NCBI GenBank assembly: GCA_049515535.1
Contig: JBEKTZ010000002.1
Span: forward strand, 91,787-147,466
Source: Candidatus Aminicenantales bacterium
GTDB taxonomy: Bacteria > Acidobacteriota > Aminicenantia > Aminicenantales > UBA4085
Length of the DNA stretch: 55,680 nucleotides
Reading direction: 5' to 3'
Under the pieces are notes generated by a model, which was not told the origin of the DNA, made no database searches, and saw nothing but the letters and a program-made list of their open reading frames with translations. Position numbers and translations under genes: made by a program. This document shows positions 1-9,006 of this stretch, in pieces (position 1 is the first letter of the stretch; each line of letters begins with the position of its first letter).

Positions 1-76
1 CGAAACTGAGGATATAGACGGCCAGCATCACCAGAATAATGACTTTCGTTTTTTTCAAGAGTTGGAAGAATTTCAA
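1..76 (-). CDS. 5' part of a probable membrane/exported protein, truncated by the window edge
   Basis: TTG at 76 opens MKFFQLLKKTKVIILVMLAVYILSF..., a basic N-terminus followed by a hydrophobic stretch; frame stays open to position 1. Confidence 0.35.
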   Translation of the reverse strand, partial: MKFFQLLKKTKVIILVMLAVYILSF

Positions 77-400
77 ATGCCCGTTTCCATCATGGATTTG
101 AGGCCGCGCGCCCAGAGGGATTCCTGGTTCGGGAAAAGGTACTCGGCTCTCCCTTCTCTCTTCTTGAGTTCCTTCAAAATGTCCAGAAGTTCTGAGCTGA
201 TAGGGATGAACCTGGTCCTTCCGCTTTGAGTCCGCTCAACCCTGATTTGGCTTCTGCGAAAATCGACCTGGTCCCATTTCAGGCCCAATATCTCTCCCTT
301 TCTCATGTCGGTGTCAATGGCCACTTTAAGGAAATGGCCACTTTAAGGATAGGACGGAGGCGTTCTATGCTTGTCTCAAGGAGCTTCTTTTCCTCGTCCG
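73..400 (-). pseudogene. Tyrosine recombinase/phage integrase fragment, frameshifted
   Basis: DEEKKLLETSIERLRPILKVAI/DTDMRKGEILGLKWDQVDF...RTRFIPIS...YLFP matches integrase box I (TGMRxGEIxxLxW). Frame broken by a 17-bp duplication; N-terminal domain and HxLR/Tyr box absent. Confidence 0.8.
316..349. repeat. Perfect 17-bp tandem duplication AATGGCCACTTTAAGGA x2
   Basis: Copies at 316-332 and 333-349 read directly from sequence. Confidence 0.95.
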
Positions 401-434: not shown

Positions 435-1406
435 TCACAGGTCTTCGGGAGCATAGATCATCCGCATATGAGCGGATCGCTCCACGAGACGCTTCACGCC
501 GTCGACCTTTTCCGTCCCGATCTTCAGGACGCCCGAGATATCCGCGACGCTGTGCTCCTTCTCGAATCCCAGAAGGATGAGATCTAAAACGTCGTAAGGG
601 AGGCCGATGGCATCCTCGTCATCGATGCCGGGAATGATATCTGGAGAGGGTGGTTTGGCGATGATATGGGGGGGGATCTGAAGATAGCGGGCAAGTTCCC
701 GGACCTGCGTCTTATATAGTGTGATCAAGGGCATGATGTCCGCGGCATCGTCACAACCGTGTTTGACAAAATAACCGATGAGCTTCTCGGTCTTATTGGC
801 CGCGCCGACAACGAGACGATTTTCCCTCTCGCCGTACAGATAGAGAAGCGCCATCCGCAAGCGGTGTTTGATCCGGTAGTAGGCATTTCGTTTTTTTAGG
901 ATCGTTTCGTATTTTTCGCTCCGGATACCCGCGAGCGACGCCGAAAATAGAGTCTCGCCCGTTCGCCGTTCGAAAATGCGATACCCCATCTTATTGAGAA
1001 AGCCTCTGATCCGGCGCATGAAGGGGATCTTGCTGAGCGGCACGAGATCGTAGACGTCCAACTCCCTGAGATAACGGGTCATGTCGATCAACCTGGCTTC
1101 GATGTTCAGGTTCTTGGCCAAGGCGAGGGCATCTTTAATATGATTCGCCTCCGAATCTTTCTCGGGCATCAAAAGAGCCACGGTTCGCTCGGCGCCGACC
1201 GCCCGCCGGCACAGTGCGGCCACGACGGCGGAATCAATTCCGCCGCTCAGCCCAAGGATGACGCCGTCGCGGTCCAGCTTTTCCATTTTATCTAAAATGA
1301 ACGCTTCCAGATGATGGCAGAGCTTTTCCGGCTCAAGGGCCATTTCCTTCTTCAGAACGTCAAGGAATAGCGTCTCGTTCATGTCGAAAAGGGTTTCTCC
1401 CTTCAT
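435..1406 (-). CDS. nadE: NH3-dependent NAD+ synthetase
   Basis: GLSGGIDSAV PP-loop, KHRLRM, NKTE..IGYFVKHG, LYKTQVRELARYL, KPPSPD; start could be 1383. Confidence 0.9.
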   Translation of the reverse strand: MKGETLFDMNETLFLDVLKKEMALEPEKLCHHLEAFILDKMEKLDRDGVILGLSGGIDSAVVAALCRRAVGAERTVALLMPEKDSEANHIKDALALAKNLNIEARLIDMTRYLRELDVYDLVPLSKIPFMRRIRGFLNKMGYRIFERRTGETLFSASLAGIRSEKYETILKKRNAYYRIKHRLRMALLYLYGERENRLVVGAANKTEKLIGYFVKHGCDDAADIMPLITLYKTQVRELARYLQIPPHIIAKPPSPDIIPGIDDEDAIGLPYDVLDLILLGFEKEHSVADISGVLKIGTEKVDGVKRLVERSAHMRMIYAPEDL

Positions 1407-1554: not shown

Positions 1555-1948
1555 CGACTTTCCCTCCCGCTAAGCTCGGAATCGATACCGCCCATCACGA
1601 AATGAGGATAATCCCGTCCGCGGATTGATGTCAACAACACAAAAATGCCCGCTAGAGCAAATAGTTTTTTGACCCCTACAACAGCTTTTTTAAAACCTTA
1701 AATCACAAAAAAAACGCCACAAACGCCGAATTCAAAGCTGAGCTTATCGTTTCTAGCTGAATATTCTATTTTCTTCCTTGCCTCTTCTCTTTCGCGCAGA
1801 AATATCCTTCTTCGGCGATTCGAGAGCGGTTTCATACCATCGAAGCTCTTTTAAATTTCGATGACTTGGCTTAATTTGGCTATAAGGGGTGCAGCAAAGA
1901 AAATTTTGTAACTTATAATATGAAAAGAATATAAGAGCAAGAAGGGAG

Positions 1949-2022
1949 CGCGCCCGGAGGGATTTGAACCCCCGACCTATGGATTCGAAGTCCAGCGCTC
2001 TATCCAGCTGAGCTACGGGCGC
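1949..2022 (-). tRNA. tRNA-Arg (anticodon TCG), CCA not encoded
   Basis: GCGCCCG acceptor stem, TAGCTCAGCTGGATAGAGC D-arm, CT-TCG-AA anticodon loop, GGTTCAAATCC T-arm. Confidence 0.95.
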
Positions 2023-2140: not shown

Positions 2141-2944
2141 TCAGGGCTTCAGGCCGTATATTTTCGCGATGATCTTTTCGACGAGCTGATCGCTGAGAAA
2201 CCTCTTGGCGAAGACCATGAGCGGGGCTTTGCCTCCCGAGGCGTAAAAGGGGGCCGGATTTCGTTTCTTCATGATGGCCCATGTTTTTTTGGCGACGACG
2301 TCAGGCGCGCTGCCGCCGGCGATTTGGTCTCGCCTCGATTGGACGACGATCCGCAGGTTTTCCTGAAAAATGGAAGCGGGCGCCGCATAGATCTCCGGTT
2401 CGATCCCCGTGCGGATATGGCCGGGCTCGAGCATCACGACTTTAACGCCCAGGCTCTTCACTTCGTTCCTCAAGGACCAGGTGAATCCGGCCAGGGCAAA
2501 TTTCGAGGCTGAGTAGGCCGACTGAAACGGCACGGCGAATTTCCCGGTCATCGAGCCGACATTGATGATGAGTCCGCGCCGCCGCCGGGCCATATCGGAA
2601 AGGACGCATTGAATGAGCTTGATCTGGCCGAAGACGTTGGTTTCGAAGAGCGAACGGATCTTTTCAACGGGCGTGTCGGCCGCCGGCCAGACTTGGCTTT
2701 CCCCCGCATTGTTGATCAGGACATCGATCGGGCCGGCCGAAACGACGCAGGCCTCGATGGAGCGTTCGTCGCGGAGATCCAGGGGAAGATACGTCACGCC
2801 CTCGATTTTATCCGGAATGGCATCGGGTTGCCGGGAGGTCCCCATGACCGGACATCCCTTCCGGACGAGGAGCGCGGCGATGGCTTTACCGATGCCTTTG
2901 GAGGCCCCCGTTACGAGGACCCTCGGCGCGGTTGCGTCCGTCGT
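2141..2944 (-). CDS. SDR family oxidoreductase; candidate 3-keto long-chain-base (dehydrocapnine/KDS) reductase
   Basis: TGASKGIG, INNAG, YSASK, EPG motifs. Start set at ACG 2944, 7 nt after GGAG; the ORF-track extension to 3283 overlaps the upstream gene. Confidence 0.8.
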   Translation of the reverse strand, partial: TTDATAPRVLVTGASKGIGKAIAALLVRKGCPVMGTSRQPDAIPDKIEGVTYLPLDLRDERSIEACVVSAGPIDVLINNAGESQVWPAADTPVEKIRSLFETNVFGQIKLIQCVLSDMARRRRGLIINVGSMTGKFAVPFQSAYSASKFALAGFTWSLRNEVKSLGVKVVMLEPGHIRTGIEPEIYAAPASIFQENLRIVVQSRRDQIAGGSAPDVVAKKTWAIMKKRNPAPFYASGGKAPLMVFAKRFLSDQLVEKIIAKIYGLKP

Positions 2945-2946
2945 TT

Positions 2947-4194
2947 TTATTCTCCCTGATCCCGGGCCAACATCGCCTTGGCCGCCCCAAGATTGAGCTT
3001 GAGCTCGTCGCGGACCGTCTTGAACGCGGCGATGGTCCGCCGGATATCCTCGTCGGTGTGCGACGCTGTCGGGACCATCCGGAAGAGAAGGATGCCCTTG
3101 GGAACCACGGGATATATGACGCCGGTGATGAAGATCCCGAGATCGCGCAACGCTTTGATGATCGCCATCCCGAGGTTGATGTCGCCCGCGGGCACGTAGA
3201 CGGCGCAGAGCGGCGACGGAACGTCCCCGACCTCGTAGCCGAGGTCTCTCAGGCCGCTTTTGATCTTGTTCGCGTTGGCCCACATCCTCTGCCGCCGCGC
3301 GTCGTCGTGGGCGATGATGTCAAGCGCCTTGGAAAGCACTGCGACGTAAATCATCGGAAGGCTCTTGGCGAAGACCTGGGTCCGGGCGTTATATCGGATC
3401 CATTCGGCGACGGGCTTGGTCGTGGCCGACACGCCGCCGATCGCGGCAAAGGCCTTGGCGAACGTGCCGAAGTAAATGTCGAGCTTGTCGTGAACGCCGA
3501 AATACTCGCCGCTCCCGCGTCCTCCCGGGCCCATGACGCCGAAACCGTGGGCGTCGTCGATATAAATCCGCGCGCCGTATCGGTCTTTCAGCGCGCAAAT
3601 GGCCGGCAGGTCGGCGATATCTCCCTTCATCCCGAAGACGCCTTCGGTGACGATCAGGACCCCGCCCTTGCGGTCCTTGTTGACGTGTTTCAGATGCGAT
3701 TCGAGGCTGTTCATGTCGTTGTGCCGGTAGACGCGGAACTTCGCCTGGGAGACGAAGACCCCGTCGAGCATCGAAGCATGGGACAGCTTGTCGACGAGGA
3801 TCGTGTCGTTGGAGTCGACGAGCGAAGCGATCGTGCCGAGGACGCCGAGGTAGCCGTAATTGAACAGAACGGCGTCCTCTTTCTGGAGCCAATCGGCGAA
3901 TTTCTTTTCGAGGGCGATGTGATGCTCGGTGTTCCCGGTCATCATCCGGGCGCCCATGGGGGCGCTGGCGCCGTACGTCCGGGCCGCCTCTACGGACAGG
4001 GCTTTGAGCTCCTCGTTCTCGGCCAAGCCCAGATAATTGTTGATCGACCACTGAACGACTTTTTTCCCTTGAAATATCATTTCCCGGCCGGGGATCGGGT
4101 CCAGGATCGGTCGGCTGAAATAATGGTCGCCGCGAGCCCTGAACGGTCCGAAATATCCTCCGTCCGTCTGGCATTTGTCGAAAAGATCTATCAT
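2947..4194 (-). CDS. PLP-dependent alpha-oxoamine synthase, SulA/CapB (cysteate fatty-acyltransferase)-like
   Basis: WSINNYLGLA, PMGARMM, HAS, EGVFGMKGD, DDAHGFG, GTFAK (PLP Lys247), QVFAKSLP. Confidence 0.85.
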   Translation of the reverse strand: MIDLFDKCQTDGGYFGPFRARGDHYFSRPILDPIPGREMIFQGKKVVQWSINNYLGLAENEELKALSVEAARTYGASAPMGARMMTGNTEHHIALEKKFADWLQKEDAVLFNYGYLGVLGTIASLVDSNDTILVDKLSHASMLDGVFVSQAKFRVYRHNDMNSLESHLKHVNKDRKGGVLIVTEGVFGMKGDIADLPAICALKDRYGARIYIDDAHGFGVMGPGGRGSGEYFGVHDKLDIYFGTFAKAFAAIGGVSATTKPVAEWIRYNARTQVFAKSLPMIYVAVLSKALDIIAHDDARRQRMWANANKIKSGLRDLGYEVGDVPSPLCAVYVPAGDINLGMAIIKALRDLGIFITGVIYPVVPKGILLFRMVPTASHTDEDIRRTIAAFKTVRDELKLNLGAAKAMLARDQGE

Positions 4195-4239
4195 CTTGGC
4201 TCCGTTTTTTTTAAAAATGTTCGATTTCTACGATAACCT

Positions 4240-4268
4240 ATCATACCGACCTCGGACTCGAAAAGCAA
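4240..4268 (-). promoter_or_regulatory. sigma70-like promoter of the oxoamine synthase-SDR operon
   Basis: TTGCTT-17 nt-TATGAT on the minus strand. Confidence 0.5.
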
Positions 4269-4312
4269 GGTTTCATGAAATCCCCGTCTCCGAAAATATT
4301 CACGATTAAAGA

Positions 4313-4816
4313 TCACGAAAAGGCGGCCGGAATTTTCCTGAGAAGTCTTTTTTTATCGCGGATGGATTGAAGCAGATCCGCCGCCAGCCGGCGAAGCCCT
4401 TGCCCCTCGTAATCCGAGCTCACGACCGAGAGGCGTCGGCCGGCGATACGGCATTTGAGATTCTTCGTTTCCTTGGCGATCTTAATCCTGGGATTTTCCC
4501 GGGTGCGCTCCATATAAGTCACCTGAATCATCATCGTCTCCAAGCCGTCGACCGTCTGAATCAGGACGACGGCCTGCGTATCTTTGTTCGTATCGTCATC
4601 GTCCGGGGCCCCGATGAAGAATTCGCCCTTGACGAAATCCTCTCCGGGCCGGGCGCCCATCTCTCTGACCTCATCGAAAATCATTTTCAAGGCGGCGAGG
4701 TCATCGGCCTTTGTTTGAGAGTGAGCCAAAAGGCCAGACAAGAGAAAAGGAATCGAAAAAAGCGCCGCCGCGAGCGATCGGGGAAAACGCGAAGATTCAA
4801 TCCTTCCCTTATTCAT
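4313..4816 (-). CDS. Hypothetical exported protein
   Basis: Signal-peptide-like N-terminus; fills the gap between divergent genes; TTGTCC-17-TAAAAT upstream. Confidence 0.65.
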   Translation of the reverse strand: MNKGRIESSRFPRSLAAALFSIPFLLSGLLAHSQTKADDLAALKMIFDEVREMGARPGEDFVKGEFFIGAPDDDDTNKDTQAVVLIQTVDGLETMMIQVTYMERTRENPRIKIAKETKNLKCRIAGRRLSVVSSDYEGQGLRRLAADLLQSIRDKKRLLRKIPAAFS

Positions 4817-4975
4817 CCTTATTCCATTTCTATTTTATCTTGTCCCTCTCCACGGGACAAGAAAATATGTCGAGGATCGCGATCCTCTTCGGCCTCGATA
4901 AGATTTGACCCCCTCTTTTTTCCTGTGATATAAAAGGAAGCAATGTCTGAGAATAGATCTTCCAAGGAGGTCGGC

Positions 4976-7099
4976 ATGACGAAGGTTCGACGCTATTCCT
5001 TTATCGTCATTTTTCTTTTCATCCTGGCGCTCGCCGCGCCTGCGGCGCAGAAAGTCCCCATCGGCTTCGACGATTACCACGGCTATACGGGAGCCGTGAA
5101 ATACATCAAAGACGTGGCCGCAACCTACCCGAACATCACCGAGCTCATCGAGACCGGCAAAAGCGGGCTTGGCCGGCCGATCTATGTCCTCGTCATCTCG
5201 AACATGAAGACCGGCACGACGATCGACCGCTATGTCGAGCTTCGTCACATGCGCAACCTCGAGGTCACGGAGACTTTTCATCAGAAGCCCTATGAAGGCA
5301 AACCCGGCCAATGGATCGACGGCGGCATGCACGGCAACGAATATACCGGCGTCGAGGTCTGCCTCTACATCATCGACAAACTGGTCAGCGGTTATGGGCT
5401 CAATCCCGAGATCACGAACCTTGTCGACAACAAGACATTTTACGTCTGCCCCGTGGTCAACCCCGACGGCGTTTTCAACAGCGTCGAGCGCGAGATCTCC
5501 CAGCGCGGGAACGGCGACCTCGGCGCCGCCAAGGACGGACCGAAGGACCTCAACGGCGACGGCCACATCACCCAGTTCCGCTTCAAAGACCCGAGAGGCT
5601 CTTATGTCGTGGACGACAAGGATCCCCGCCTGATGATCCGCCTCACCGCGAATGAACAGACGACCAAACAGCGCTATACGGTCGTCACCGAGGGCCAGAA
5701 GCCCGCGGCGGGTGGGCCGCGAGGCGGCGATCCCGAAGCCGCCGGCGGCAGCATCGACGTTAACCGCAATTTCCCCGAGGGATGGTGGACGGAGGAGGGC
5801 ATGCCGGGCGGCACCGGCTTTTACCCGACCTCGTCTCCCGAAGCGCATGCCCTCGTGGAATTCGCGGTCGACCATCGCAATATCCTTATGGTCCAGAATT
5901 TCCACACATCGGGCGGATTCACGTATCGCGTGCCCGGGACCGCCCCGGACACCGCCATAGCGCCCAAAGACGTCGCCGTCTACGACCTCGTCCTGGGAAA
6001 GAAATACCTCGAGATCATCGGCGAAAAAGTGCCCGACGCCTGGCAGAAACCCGAACAAATGGCTGATTTCAAAGCCAAGCTGCGCGAGACATCGAAGAAT
6101 AAATTCGCGATCGAACGCGGATATGAGATGCCGCGCGGCTGGATCATGGGCTACAACGAGGAACGCGATCAGCGTTACGGCTACGGCATGGTCATCGACT
6201 GGTGGTATCAGCAATTCGGCGCCTATGCGGTGACGACCGAGCTCTGGAATCCCACCGCGGACATCCCGGGATTTCCCAAGAGCGCGGCCGCGTCCCCCGA
6301 CGCGCGCAACGAACAGGAGCGCGGCCTGCTCAAGGTCAACGACGAAAAATACGGCGGCCGGCTGTTCGTCAAATGGGCGCCGTTCAAGCATCCGGAGCTC
6401 GGGGACGGCGAGATCGGCGGATGGATTCCGAAATACCGCGGCAATGCGCTCCCCGGAGAGCCGCTGAAATATGTCTGCGAAAACCACTGGCAATTCGAGA
6501 TGTTCAGGGCCGGACTGCTCCCGGATATCGCCATCACGGAAGCCAAAGCCGACATCCTCTACACGACCGATAACGCCCGCGCGGCCGCGGCCGAAGTCCA
6601 GGGAGATCAGGTGACGATCAAAAAAGGCGCGTCGAAGGGAAAATATAAAATCGTCGAAGTCACGGCGACGATCGAGAACAGGGGCAAGCTGGCCACGCAC
6701 GTCGCCCGAGGCGCCCAGCTCAATGAAAATCGCGAAGACGTCGTTTGGCTCGTCGGAGATCGCGATAAAGTCAAGTTTCTCCAGGGCGGCGCCTATCAAA
6801 AACTCGGAGTCCTCGACGGAACGCTGAGGATTCCCGGCGTTTCAGGACAAGCCGGATCGCCATCCCCAGGTCAGCGGGGAGCGGGAGGAGGCGCTCCGCC
6901 CGCGGTGACGGCCCAGATGCCGGCCGGCTTGCCCGGAGGGCAGCGCGGCATGGGGGCCGTCCGGCCGCAACAGCCTCTCCAAATGGGCCCCCGCCGCGAA
7001 GTGAAATGGCTTATCGCCGTCGAAGGCGATACGCCGCTTAAAATCGTCTTCACTTCCGAAAAGGGCGGAACCGTCGTCAAGGACATCGCCGTCCGGTGA
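4976..7099 (+). CDS. Secreted M14 zinc carboxypeptidase
   Basis: AGGAGG then ATG 4976; signal peptide; HGNE, NPDG, DVNRNF, NFHT, TELW. Confidence 0.9.
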   Translation: MTKVRRYSFIVIFLFILALAAPAAQKVPIGFDDYHGYTGAVKYIKDVAATYPNITELIETGKSGLGRPIYVLVISNMKTGTTIDRYVELRHMRNLEVTETFHQKPYEGKPGQWIDGGMHGNEYTGVEVCLYIIDKLVSGYGLNPEITNLVDNKTFYVCPVVNPDGVFNSVEREISQRGNGDLGAAKDGPKDLNGDGHITQFRFKDPRGSYVVDDKDPRLMIRLTANEQTTKQRYTVVTEGQKPAAGGPRGGDPEAAGGSIDVNRNFPEGWWTEEGMPGGTGFYPTSSPEAHALVEFAVDHRNILMVQNFHTSGGFTYRVPGTAPDTAIAPKDVAVYDLVLGKKYLEIIGEKVPDAWQKPEQMADFKAKLRETSKNKFAIERGYEMPRGWIMGYNEERDQRYGYGMVIDWWYQQFGAYAVTTELWNPTADIPGFPKSAAASPDARNEQERGLLKVNDEKYGGRLFVKWAPFKHPELGDGEIGGWIPKYRGNALPGEPLKYVCENHWQFEMFRAGLLPDIAITEAKADILYTTDNARAAAAEVQGDQVTIKKGASKGKYKIVEVTATIENRGKLATHVARGAQLNENREDVVWLVGDRDKVKFLQGGAYQKLGVLDGTLRIPGVSGQAGSPSPGQRGAGGGAPPAVTAQMPAGLPGGQRGMGAVRPQQPLQMGPRREVKWLIAVEGDTPLKIVFTSEKGGTVVKDIAVR

Positions 7100-7110
7100 A
7101 GGAGAAAGCC

Positions 7111-9006
7111 ATGAAGAAAAACCATACCCATAAAGCCAAGATTTTCAGCATCGCCTTCCTCCTTCTCTTTTCTTTGATTCTCCTCCCCGCCCCCACATCC
7201 CCATCTTCTCCCCAAACGAAGCTCCAAAACTCCCCGGGGGGCTACCACGGCGAGATGGACTTCCCCATTTCGTGGAAGCACTATTACGCCTATGACGAAT
7301 GGACCAAAATCATGCGCGACCTGCAGGCGAAATATCCTCAGCTCTGCGATATCCGGAGCATAGGAAAAAGCCGGCAGGGCCGCGACCAGCTTCTTTTGAC
7401 CATCACCGCCAAATCGACGGGAAAACCCGAAACCAAAACGGCTATGTGGCTGGACGGCGCGATCCACGGCAACGAAATCAACGGCATCACCTGCGCGCTC
7501 TACACGGCCTGGTACCTGTTGTCCCGCTATGATTACGATCCTTACGTCAACGGTCTCGTCAACGGGACAACGTTCTACATTCTTCCCGGCCTGAATGTGG
7601 ACGGCAACGATTCCTACGTCCGCTTCCCCAATACCGCCAACAATCCTCGTGAGCCGTTCCGCCGCAGCGATGACGACGGCGACGGCCTTTTCGATGAAGA
7701 CCAGACCGAGGACGTGGACGGCGACGGCGAAATCTCGATGATGTACGTCGAGGATCCGCTGGGCGATTTGAAGCTCTCGCCCGACAAGCGCCGTTTCGTC
7801 CAGGTCGAAGACCCGCGCGAGGACGTCCGGCGGTTCCGCCGCATCGGCATGGAAGGTTACGATAATGACGGTGACGGACGGATCAATGAAGACGATCTGG
7901 GCGGACCCGACCCGAACCGGAATTTCCCCTTTGATTGGAATTTGCGGGACGGCGCTCCCTATCCCATGAGCGAGCCGGAGACGCGCAATGTCTTCGAATT
8001 CTGGCTCGCCCACCCGAACATCTTCGCCTCGTTCCATTTCCACAATACGGGAAAGCTGCTCATGTTCTCGGCCCCCCCGGCCGCCCGAGGCACGACGATG
8101 ACGCCCGAGCAGCAACGCCAGATGCAGGAGCGAAACGCGCTGCGTCTGGAAGAGATGCGCAAGACGAATCAGTATGCCCAGCTTTTCGATCGCGTCGTGG
8201 ATCGGAATTACCAGGGCGACATGGACGCCTTGACCGAAATGATGACGATGGGCGCCCGCATCACGAAGGATTACCGGCCGACGATCAGCGGGATGGTCGG
8301 GCAGGCCCAGGCGGCTTCCTATTACATGCTGGGAGCCTACGCCTGCTTGATCGAGCTGTGGGGCTCGCCGGTCGCCGAGGCGGACGAAAACAAGGACGGC
8401 CGGGTCTCCGATGAGGAATTCATGAAATGGATCGACATCGAGCTCGGCGGCGAAGGCTGGATCAACCCTCACCCGTTCCATCATCCGGATCTCGGCGATA
8501 TCTGGATCGGAGGAACGGCCAAGAAACACGTTACCCGTACGCCGCCGGCGCGATATATGGAAGGGGAAGCGCTCCGGATCGCGCAGTTCGTCCTGTACAG
8601 CGCCAGCCAGTTTCCGAAAGTGGAGATTGAGAGAGTCCGGGTGAAACCGGCGACGGATAATCTCGTCTGGGTCGAAGTGACGGTCAAGAACGGAAGCGTC
8701 TATCCGACGAGCTCGGACCGGATGGTCCAGTTGAAGAAAGACGTGAAGGACAAGCTGACGATCGCCACGTCCGGGAATGTCAAACTCATCGACGTCCCCG
8801 AAGGCCAGACGGTCCTCGATCCATTGAACCCCGCCGAGCGCCTCCAAACGCCCAAAGGCAAAACGGCCGAATTCCGTCTCGGCGGAAAACAATCACAAAC
8901 GTTCGCCTATTTGTTGAAGATGGACGGGAGCGAAGGGTGGGTGGAATTCGAGGTGAATTCGAAGTTCGGAGGAACGGCCAAGAAGCACATCACCTTCAAA
9001 TCATGA
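7111..9006 (+). CDS. Secreted M14 zinc carboxypeptidase (paralog) with DxDxDG Ca-binding loops
   Basis: AAGGAG then ATG 7111; HGNE, NVDG, DPNRNF, FHN, IELW; DDDGDG, DVDGDG, DNDGDG, DENKDG. Confidence 0.9.
   Translation: MKKNHTHKAKIFSIAFLLLFSLILLPAPTSPSSPQTKLQNSPGGYHGEMDFPISWKHYYAYDEWTKIMRDLQAKYPQLCDIRSIGKSRQGRDQLLLTITAKSTGKPETKTAMWLDGAIHGNEINGITCALYTAWYLLSRYDYDPYVNGLVNGTTFYILPGLNVDGNDSYVRFPNTANNPREPFRRSDDDGDGLFDEDQTEDVDGDGEISMMYVEDPLGDLKLSPDKRRFVQVEDPREDVRRFRRIGMEGYDNDGDGRINEDDLGGPDPNRNFPFDWNLRDGAPYPMSEPETRNVFEFWLAHPNIFASFHFHNTGKLLMFSAPPAARGTTMTPEQQRQMQERNALRLEEMRKTNQYAQLFDRVVDRNYQGDMDALTEMMTMGARITKDYRPTISGMVGQAQAASYYMLGAYACLIELWGSPVAEADENKDGRVSDEEFMKWIDIELGGEGWINPHPFHHPDLGDIWIGGTAKKHVTRTPPARYMEGEALRIAQFVLYSASQFPKVEIERVRVKPATDNLVWVEVTVKNGSVYPTSSDRMVQLKKDVKDKLTIATSGNVKLIDVPEGQTVLDPLNPAERLQTPKGKTAEFRLGGKQSQTFAYLLKMDGSEGWVEFEVNSKFGGTAKKHITFKS

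Follow-up and report, generated by a model that had tools for sequence, protein, structure and literature searches.

A cysteate acyltransferase-type alpha-oxoamine synthase followed by a dehydrogenase in Aminicenantes, a candidate module for a sulfonolipid base

The stretch of DNA analyzed here, which we call the window, comprises 55,680 nucleotides of contig JBEKTZ010000002.1 from a Candidatus Aminicenantales bacterium (assembly GCA_049515535.1) and carries on its minus strand two adjacent genes, one for an alpha-oxoamine synthase (AOS) and one for a short-chain dehydrogenase/reductase (SDR), that we consider as a candidate module for the long-chain base of sulfonolipids. The AOS, a pyridoxal 5'-phosphate (PLP)-dependent protein of 415 aa, occupies 2947..4194(-), from an ATG at 4194 to a TAA stop at 2949-2947, and matches Aminotran_1_2 (PF00155) in Pfam with an E value of 1.7e-44; its PDB scores, its place in a tree and its pocket columns mark it as a SulA/CapB-like protein of the cysteate acyltransferase (CFAT) type. 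All four motifs listed in the original prediction (WSINNYLGLA, PMGARMM, EGVFGMKGD and QVFAKSLP) are present in this open reading frame (ORF), and the codon of Lys277 lies where it had been placed, at 3366-3364 on the minus strand. Counted from the same ATG, the PLP-binding Lys247 is codon 3456-3454. The second gene (2141..2950(-)) encodes a classical SDR of ~269 aa if started at an ATA codon at 2950-2948; its frame begins just behind the AOS stop and ends with its own stop at 2143-2141. It matches adh_short (Pfam, E value 1.7e-45) and carries the motifs TGASKGIG, NNAG and YSASK, and from this family and its position we annotate it as a putative 3-ketocapnine (3-keto long-chain-base) reductase.

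The 118-nt spacer 5' of the AOS (4195..4312(-)) contains, by eye, a purine-rich ACGGAGCC ahead of the ATG as well as TATGAT, a weak -10-like hexamer. One promoter had been reported upstream of the AOS, but no site within the spacer passes a sigma-70-like consensus scan, the only arrangement visible by eye being TTGCTT-17-TATGAT with 3/6 matches in the first hexamer. The promoter-like site that the scan does find lies farther out, at 4860-4832(-), 5' of a 167-aa ORF (4313..4816(-)) with a hydrophobic N-terminal stretch. This ORF has no Pfam or NCBIfam match and is kept immediately 5' of the AOS in the three nearest relatives (cluster 13, made up of the host, L140, L141 and L142); it is possibly the first gene of the transcription unit. 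On the other side, the AOS–SDR pair is limited by a tRNA-Arg(TCG) gene found with ARAGORN (1948..2022(-)), which has a separate promoter-like site at 2063-2035, and past the tRNA lie a NAD synthase (435-1406(-)) and an integrase fragment (73-324(-)). Upstream of the pair, 4943-9006(+) encodes a pair of long exported proteins (718 and 636 aa) that look M14 carboxypeptidase-like by eye.

In a phmmer search of the PDB, the two best matches of the AOS were the Capnocytophaga ochracea CFAT (28eh; 372.9 bits over residues 1-414) and SulA (7u7h; 369.2 bits), against 237 bits for the best serine palmitoyltransferase (SPT), 234 bits for the best Kbl and ~175 bits for BioF. Another view of the locus would be that it holds an ordinary BioF, Kbl or SPT beside an unrelated dehydrogenase. 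Relatives of the AOS are indeed annotated publicly as "glycine C-acetyltransferase" or "8-amino-7-oxononanoate synthase", and BioF and Kbl head its NCBIfam rows. Against this, the equivalog rows all remain under their cut-offs (BioF 325 vs 426 bits, Kbl 323 vs 460, SPT-CFB 306 vs 640 and ALAS 233 vs 339), and the host genome encodes a true Kbl (565 bits vs the 460 cut-off) as well as two SPT/BioF-like paralogues, so the window AOS is not required for those roles. These three host genes are found at C3:304859-306181, C3:135447-136643 and C12:91030-92277. The best NF047600 scores of the two SPT/BioF-like paralogues, 427 and 445, are under the cut-off of 640, and the true Kbl adjoins an acetate transporter and an acetate-CoA ligase.

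The phylogeny separated the window AOS from the ordinary enzymes with full support. The starting set consisted of 135 AOS proteins from the collected loci, from which 17 identical rows and one row shorter than 370 residues were removed; after the Bacteroidota CFAT-like group had been cut to 16 rows, 91 sequences entered a quick IQ-TREE run, with E. coli BioF, E. coli Kbl and a Reichenbachiella SPT (L099, which passes its cut-off with 698 bits) as references. A single branch of length 1.65 with SH-like approximate likelihood ratio test (SH-aLRT) support of 100 splits a CFAT clade from all other AOS. On its CFAT side are the window AOS and proteins from Aminicenantia, Spirochaetaceae, WOR-3, a Rhodothermales fusion protein and the Bacteroidota CFAT-like group; on the opposite side are E. 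coli BioF and Kbl, the SPT L099 and the remaining AOS. The assayed CFATs are linked to this tree through a proxy, the Apibacter protein L107 that anchors the Bacteroidota group and matches 28eh with 656 bits and 7u7h with 570 bits, and it is with this link that the AOS groups with CFATs and apart from BioF, Kbl and SPT, in line with the affiliation originally proposed.

The pocket columns agree with the tree. Lys277 aligns with Lys281 of SulA and Lys280 of the C. ochracea enzyme, COCFAT (FAKSLP in the window, mFAKSLP in 28eh and yAKSLP in 7u7h), and the contrast that the original prediction had drawn for this loop holds, SPT having A at position 277, Kbl N and BioF T. Across the tree, K occupies this column in 63/63 rows of the CFAT clade, and the 27 rows outside it have A, N, T or S. 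A role for the lysine at SulA position 281 is described in PMC9304779, and residues around the PLP–cysteate adduct are named in PMC13692747 and PMC9304779; the window AOS retains N52, G81, A82, Y113, G114, Y115, H139, E184, H216, F242, T244, A246, K247 and K277 of these. Some of the positions are common to the whole superfamily sample: H139 is invariant on both sides of the branch, N52, H216 and T244 are fixed in the CFAT clade and kept in all other AOS except one each, and K247 is found in all other AOS and, with one I, in the CFAT clade. T244 and K247, the ends of the T-x-x-K containing the PLP lysine, align with T247 and K250 of COCFAT. The side-chain pocket, in contrast, is remodelled as in CFATs at Y-G-Y (113-115), E184, F242, A246 and G81-A82. 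Position 113 is F or Y (one S) in the CFAT clade and T, A, S or N elsewhere; 114-115 are G and Y (one F) in the clade, 81-82 are G followed by A or S, and both pairs are variable elsewhere. Position 184 is E in the clade and mostly D in the others (SPT, Kbl), BioF-like proteins mostly having E; position 242 is F or L in the clade against V, M, T, I or L, and position 246 is A (one S) against S or G. With every NCBIfam row under its cut-off, a fully supported split in the tree and Lys rather than A, N or T at 277, we consider an ordinary BioF, Kbl or SPT highly improbable. Every test that we ran supports classifying the window AOS by family as a CFAT/SulA/CapB-type enzyme, an assignment made from sequence.

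Compared with the characterized enzymes, CapB/COCFAT from C. ochracea (PDB 28eh and 28fa) and SulA from Alistipes finegoldii (7u7h), the window AOS aligns over its full length (373 and 369 bits, respectively) and has in common with them the PLP lysine, the trans-subunit lysine (K277, K280 and K281), N52, G81-A82, G114-Y115, H139, H216 and T244. It differs from the two in having Y113, S141 and V274 instead of F, C and M, and it is only 40-45% identical (tblastn) to proteins of the Bacteroidota CFAT group. The gene order is different too, as the window AOS has a reductase gene directly 3', while PMC11211663 describes cfat, cys and kcr as lying scattered over the genomes of C. gleum and A. finegoldii. 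Unlike the hosts of CapB and SulA, the host here is a member of Aminicenantes with no cysteate synthase.

The SDR gene presents a peculiar start. It had been predicted to begin 2 nt after the AOS stop, but the codon at that place (2944-2942) is ACG, which is no start, and the sequence from the AOS stop to the Rossmann motif RVLVTGASKGIG contains no ATG, GTG or TTG. The sole start of translation table 11 available to the SDR is the ATA at 2950-2948, which overlaps the TAA of the AOS as ATAA (window 2942-2952). We surveyed SDR starts in 22 loci and could locate the Rossmann motif in 20, in 17 of which an ATG or TTG stands 4-9 codons before it. The three loci with no ATG or TTG start are the window, L140 and L141, the latter two having no table-11 start of any kind. 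At this place the sister locus L142 has AGA ATG A and the window has AGA ATA A; a single G-to-A change between them would have retained the AOS stop (TGA to TAA) and removed the SDR start. The junction is bridged by contigs from 3 further peat runs/studies, which show presence only; among the difference rows listed, all but 40 of the total, none falls at the junction itself. A programmed frameshift fusing AOS and SDR was considered and rejected, since the sequence ahead of the stop shows, by eye, no heptamer of the form X XXY YYZ. ATA is permitted as a start in table 11, and the overlap of a stop with a start favours reinitiation. Translation of the SDR is most likely by termination–reinitiation at this ATA.

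The same junction could be taken as a sign that the pair is a relic, with intact genes in an idle pathway that has lost its supply of cysteate and an SDR whose translation was crippled by the change from ATG to ATA. The ATGA of L142 against the ATAA of the window and the startless SDRs of L140 and L141 fit such a history, as do a relative (G238) that has no SDR and carries a transposase 5' of the AOS, and the lack from the host genome of both a canonical cysteate synthase and the pair of 3'-phosphoadenosine-5'-phosphosulfate (PAPS) reductase and ThrC-like protein described below. However, both the AOS and the SDR frames are full length with their catalytic residues intact, 9/13 listed SDR differences in the contigs of the 3 peat runs fall at third codon positions, which, on few sites, suggests purifying selection, and the permitted ATA with its stop overlap would favour reinitiation. 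We regard decay of this kind as quite unlikely.

The function of the SDR is less sharply defined than that of the AOS. Its top NCBIfam rows are generic (PRK06179, 200 bits and under its cut-off, and PRK06182, 182 bits). Among rows with a named function, Bacteroides KdsR (NF049977) scores highest, with 154 bits against a cut-off of 400, and in the PDB the top match is 3m1a (110 bits), an uncharacterised dehydrogenase. In 5 other CFAT-bearing genomes its best homologues are just 30-38% identical, and the NCBIfam, PDB and homologue comparisons gave no orthology to any named ketoreductase. With the 3-ketocapnine reductases (KCRs; CapC of Ornithobacterium rhinotracheale, CG_KCR and AF_KCR) and KdsR it has in common the classical SDR architecture, the Rossmann motif and the S-Y-K triad; its score to KdsR is under the 400 cut-off, and the likeness to CapC and the KCRs is one of family features rather than of compared sequences. 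The validated KCRs are themselves polyphyletic, as reported in PMC11211663. A classical SDR stands directly 3' of the AOS in 19/36 assessable loci of the class (of 40 class loci 4 end too early to be judged, and 2 of the 42 places outside the window are not included). Position and chemistry are thus what point to a putative 3-ketocapnine reductase.

The host had been suspected to lie outside Bacteroidota, and the taxonomy bears this out: the nearest proteins and loci are labelled Candidatus Aminicenantes, and the family of the host in our genome collection includes the same records. The nearest Aminicenantes relatives of the AOS are 81-86% identical and the next tier 63-73%. At E < 1e-100 we found the AOS in 42/339 species genomes of the class Aminicenantia, with 25 of the 166 high-quality genomes, 20 of the 95 genera and 17 of the 26 genomes of the host family being carriers. 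Outside the class, identity to the window AOS is 60% in an unclassified metagenome-assembled genome (MAG), 58-59% in Spirochaetaceae, 58% in WOR-3, 57% in a MAG labelled Haloplasma, 53% in Rhodothermales and 40-45% in Bacteroidota. In the Rhodothermales MAG, the AOS is part of a 1143-aa fusion (L023:5829-9260), in which a fatty-acyl-AMP ligase (AMP-binding) and a carrier domain (PP-binding) are joined to the CFAT-type AOS; glyoxalase-fold genes follow this fusion and also flank the spirochaete and WOR-3 loci. A 2023 review states that bacterial sulfonolipid synthesis is seemingly confined to Bacteroidota and that Alistipes employs an archaeal-type cysteate synthase, not CapA; the literature also lists sulfonolipid references for Salinibacter. 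Within the library searched, no paper joined "sulfonolipid" and "Aminicenantes", and in a broader search none of the top 25 results paired "sulfonolipid" or "capnine" with "Aminicenantes" or "Spirochaet"; the supplementary broad tree of PMC13692747 and taxon lists of PMC11525784 may nevertheless show non-Bacteroidota CFAT homologues. For the host genome, the pathway is plausible but incomplete: a known kind of enzyme in a new phylum, in an operon-like AOS–SDR order, with no known supply of its substrate.

Gene neighbourhoods of the relatives bear on the substrate. The nearest outgroup of the Aminicenantia AOS (SH-aLRT 96) is formed by proteins from Spirochaetaceae, WOR-3 and an unclassified MAG (L011-L014 and L021), 57-60% identical to the window AOS and with the same pocket columns. 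In L011, L013, L014 and L021 an archaeal-type cysteate synthase is encoded directly 5' of the AOS, scoring 492-523 bits to TIGR03844 against a cut-off of 324.9, and in L011 a PAPS reductase precedes the synthase. Because a cysteate synthase above its cut-off adjoins the AOS, the sister clade appears to use cysteate, for which we regard this as strong context evidence. The spirochaete/WOR-3-type loci have the synthase and no adjacent SDR, and the window has the SDR and no synthase. Among Bacteroidota, CapA-type genes occur next to the CFAT of Apibacter (568 bits) and, in a Saprospiraceae genome, ~2 kb 5' of the CFAT (490 bits).

Within the class, in a second locus type (at least 12 loci) the AOS is followed first by a CAAX-protease-like membrane protein and then by one or two reductases of the epimerase/3beta-HSD family, and 5 loci also contain a ~375-aa GNAT-like protein, which comes last. 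A host homologue of the latter, 374 aa long and 34-38% identical, is encoded at C5:163724-164848 and is by this association a candidate N-acyltransferase. Caulobacter-type ceramide genes (Spt, the epimerase-family CerR and the GNAT-like bCerS) resemble by description this set of AOS, epimerase-family reductase and GNAT-like protein, with the difference that the Aminicenantia condensing enzyme is CFAT-type rather than SPT-type; one example (L017:9293-13137) recalls a complete ceramide-like module. In a single genus, a 628-aa fusion of a cNMP-binding domain and an aspartase/fumarase-family lyase is encoded directly 5' of the AOS–SDR pair (L153:3957-5843 and the g4 loci L155, L159 and L161).

By tracing TIGR03844 matches of ~93-118 bits in the class, we found a 444-aa ThrC-like PLP protein, here called X, that may be a third kind of cysteate synthase. 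It remains under all NCBIfam cut-offs (150 vs 303 bits for the threonine synthase PRK08197 and 115 vs 325 bits for cysteate synthase) and is 24% identical to a spirochaete cysteate synthase. In two genomes, G241 (L091:1393-3570, with X at 1393-2727) and G227 (L092:1393-3469), X is encoded directly behind a PAPS reductase (233 bits vs a cut-off of 154). In the class survey, which counted X alone and not the pair, it was present in 28/339 genomes, namely in 23 of the 42 with the AOS and 5 of the 297 without it, the latter five all being <90% complete. As related genomes are not independent, we take this co-occurrence as a strong lead and not as a statistical test. The archaeal synthase itself was found in 7/339 class genomes, none of them among the 166 of high quality, and 3 of the 7 also have the AOS. 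X or the canonical synthase covers 26/42 AOS-bearing genomes.

No such supply was found in the host. The window contains no cysteate synthase, as the original prediction had noted, none of the PALP-family genes of the genome falling inside it, and our search of the whole genome revealed neither the CapA nor the archaeal type in the assembly, which is 94.15% complete. The best TIGR03844 score there is 56.3 bits against the cut-off of 324.9, on a true threonine synthase; a spirochaete cysteate synthase used as query has no match; the best score to the CapA model (NF053679) is 178.7 bits against 600, on a CysK-like protein; and neither a PAPS reductase (PF01507) nor X is present. The genes flanking the synthase site of the sister genome G240 were found on host contig C7, which goes on with other genes at that site. 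Across the class, 16/42 AOS-bearing genomes have neither the archaeal synthase nor X; the 16 include the host and the neighbouring genera g5 and g6, with one single-contig genome among them. Across the class, the CapA model gave 156 matches under its cut-off (~310-430 bits), CysK/CBS-like in appearance and none in the host family. A D-cysteine-desulfhydrase-family protein resembling CuyA/XcbE was also considered (C2:72044-73114, ~19 kb before the window); its best NCBIfam row is the D-cysteate sulfo-lyase CuyA, at 334 bits against a cut-off of 450, its neighbours (SPFH, BNR and kinase genes) are unrelated, and we draw no conclusion from it.

The host does have a ComA (phosphosulfolactate synthase; TIGR03849, 336 bits vs a cut-off of 280), whose gene overlaps a 382-aa ORF that lies upstream and belongs to no known family (C4:278425-280403, or L181:8425-10403, for both). 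Neither this ORF nor the 374-aa GNAT-like protein has a Pfam or PDB sequence match, and their Atlas clusters are labelled only "hypothetical" or "N-acetyltransferase". ComA is present in 8 of the 16 AOS-bearing genomes that have no synthase or X, the host included. As a general supplier of cysteate we rejected it: it shows no link with the AOS, being found in 12/42 genomes with the AOS and 106/339 overall, and ComB and ComC were not found in the host genome. Its presence in 106/339 genomes of Aminicenantia, a class of non-methanogens, is an observation in its own right. These gaps in cysteate supply, together with the missing ATG, GTG or TTG and the distant homologues of the SDR, weigh against the host making capnine from this pair. 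The original prediction that it does so is upheld as to the enzyme family, for which tree, PDB scores and pocket speak, and is no more than plausible as to capnine, in a host with no cysteate synthase, PAPS reductase or X and with an SDR that is no orthologue of a named ketoreductase.

An enzyme of the same fold and clade could condense another amino acid in the host genus and in g5 and g6, perhaps serine or another small anionic amino acid such as a ComA-derived C3 sulfonate or sulfinate, so that the long-chain base would not be capnine. In none of these genera is there a recognised or candidate cysteate synthase, the single-contig genome included, and all of their genomes have ComA with the overlapping partner ORF. 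Mutagenesis reported in PMC13692747 shows that first-shell residues alone do not set specificity, so the retained pocket residues do not prove the substrate. On the other hand, 20/20 pocket and loop columns examined are equal to those of homologues encoded beside a cysteate synthase, and the window AOS is 85-86% identical to its counterparts in G240 and G241, two genomes equipped with a canonical synthase or X. The assays point the same way: SulA rejected serine and phosphoserine (PMC9304779), and 6/6 assayed CFATs preferred cysteate (PMC13692747). We judge a switch of substrate in these genera to be unlikely, and cysteate to be the better candidate.

Overall, we favour with moderate confidence the reading of the AOS–SDR pair as a sulfonolipid-base module; it builds on the clade membership, pocket, gene order and taxonomy described above and extends them to a proposed substrate and product and to a function for the SDR. 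In the proposed mechanism, the AOS would form a PLP external aldimine with cysteate and condense cysteate with a long-chain acyl chain carried on acyl carrier protein, with loss of CO2, to give 3-ketocapnine. The SDR, probably translation-coupled from the ATA that overlaps the AOS stop, would then use NAD(P)H to reduce the 3-keto group, yielding a sulfonated long-chain base similar to capnine, for whose N-acylation the 374-aa GNAT-like protein is the candidate enzyme. Cysteate in the host might derive from C3 sulfonates made through ComA, might be taken up, or might depend on a gene within the 6% that the assembly lacks. A broader proposal, that Aminicenantes make a capnine-like sulfonated base through undescribed cysteate routes, with PAPS reductase-coupled X serving the class and ComA with its 382-aa partner, or else another anionic head group, serving the host subclade, is possible but doubtful, and we offer it tentatively.

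The missing cysteate synthase poses the question of where cysteate originates in these bacteria, to which PAPS reductase with X and ComA with its partner are the candidate answers. If the host subclade uses another anionic amino acid as head group, its products would constitute a new lipid class. As the CFAT clade is found in 42/339 Aminicenantia and, beside a cysteate synthase, in spirochaetes, WOR-3 and others, capnine-type lipids may occur in these lineages; they may form part of the membranes of uncultured anaerobes that abound in peat, sediment and groundwater, and might serve as biomarkers for them.

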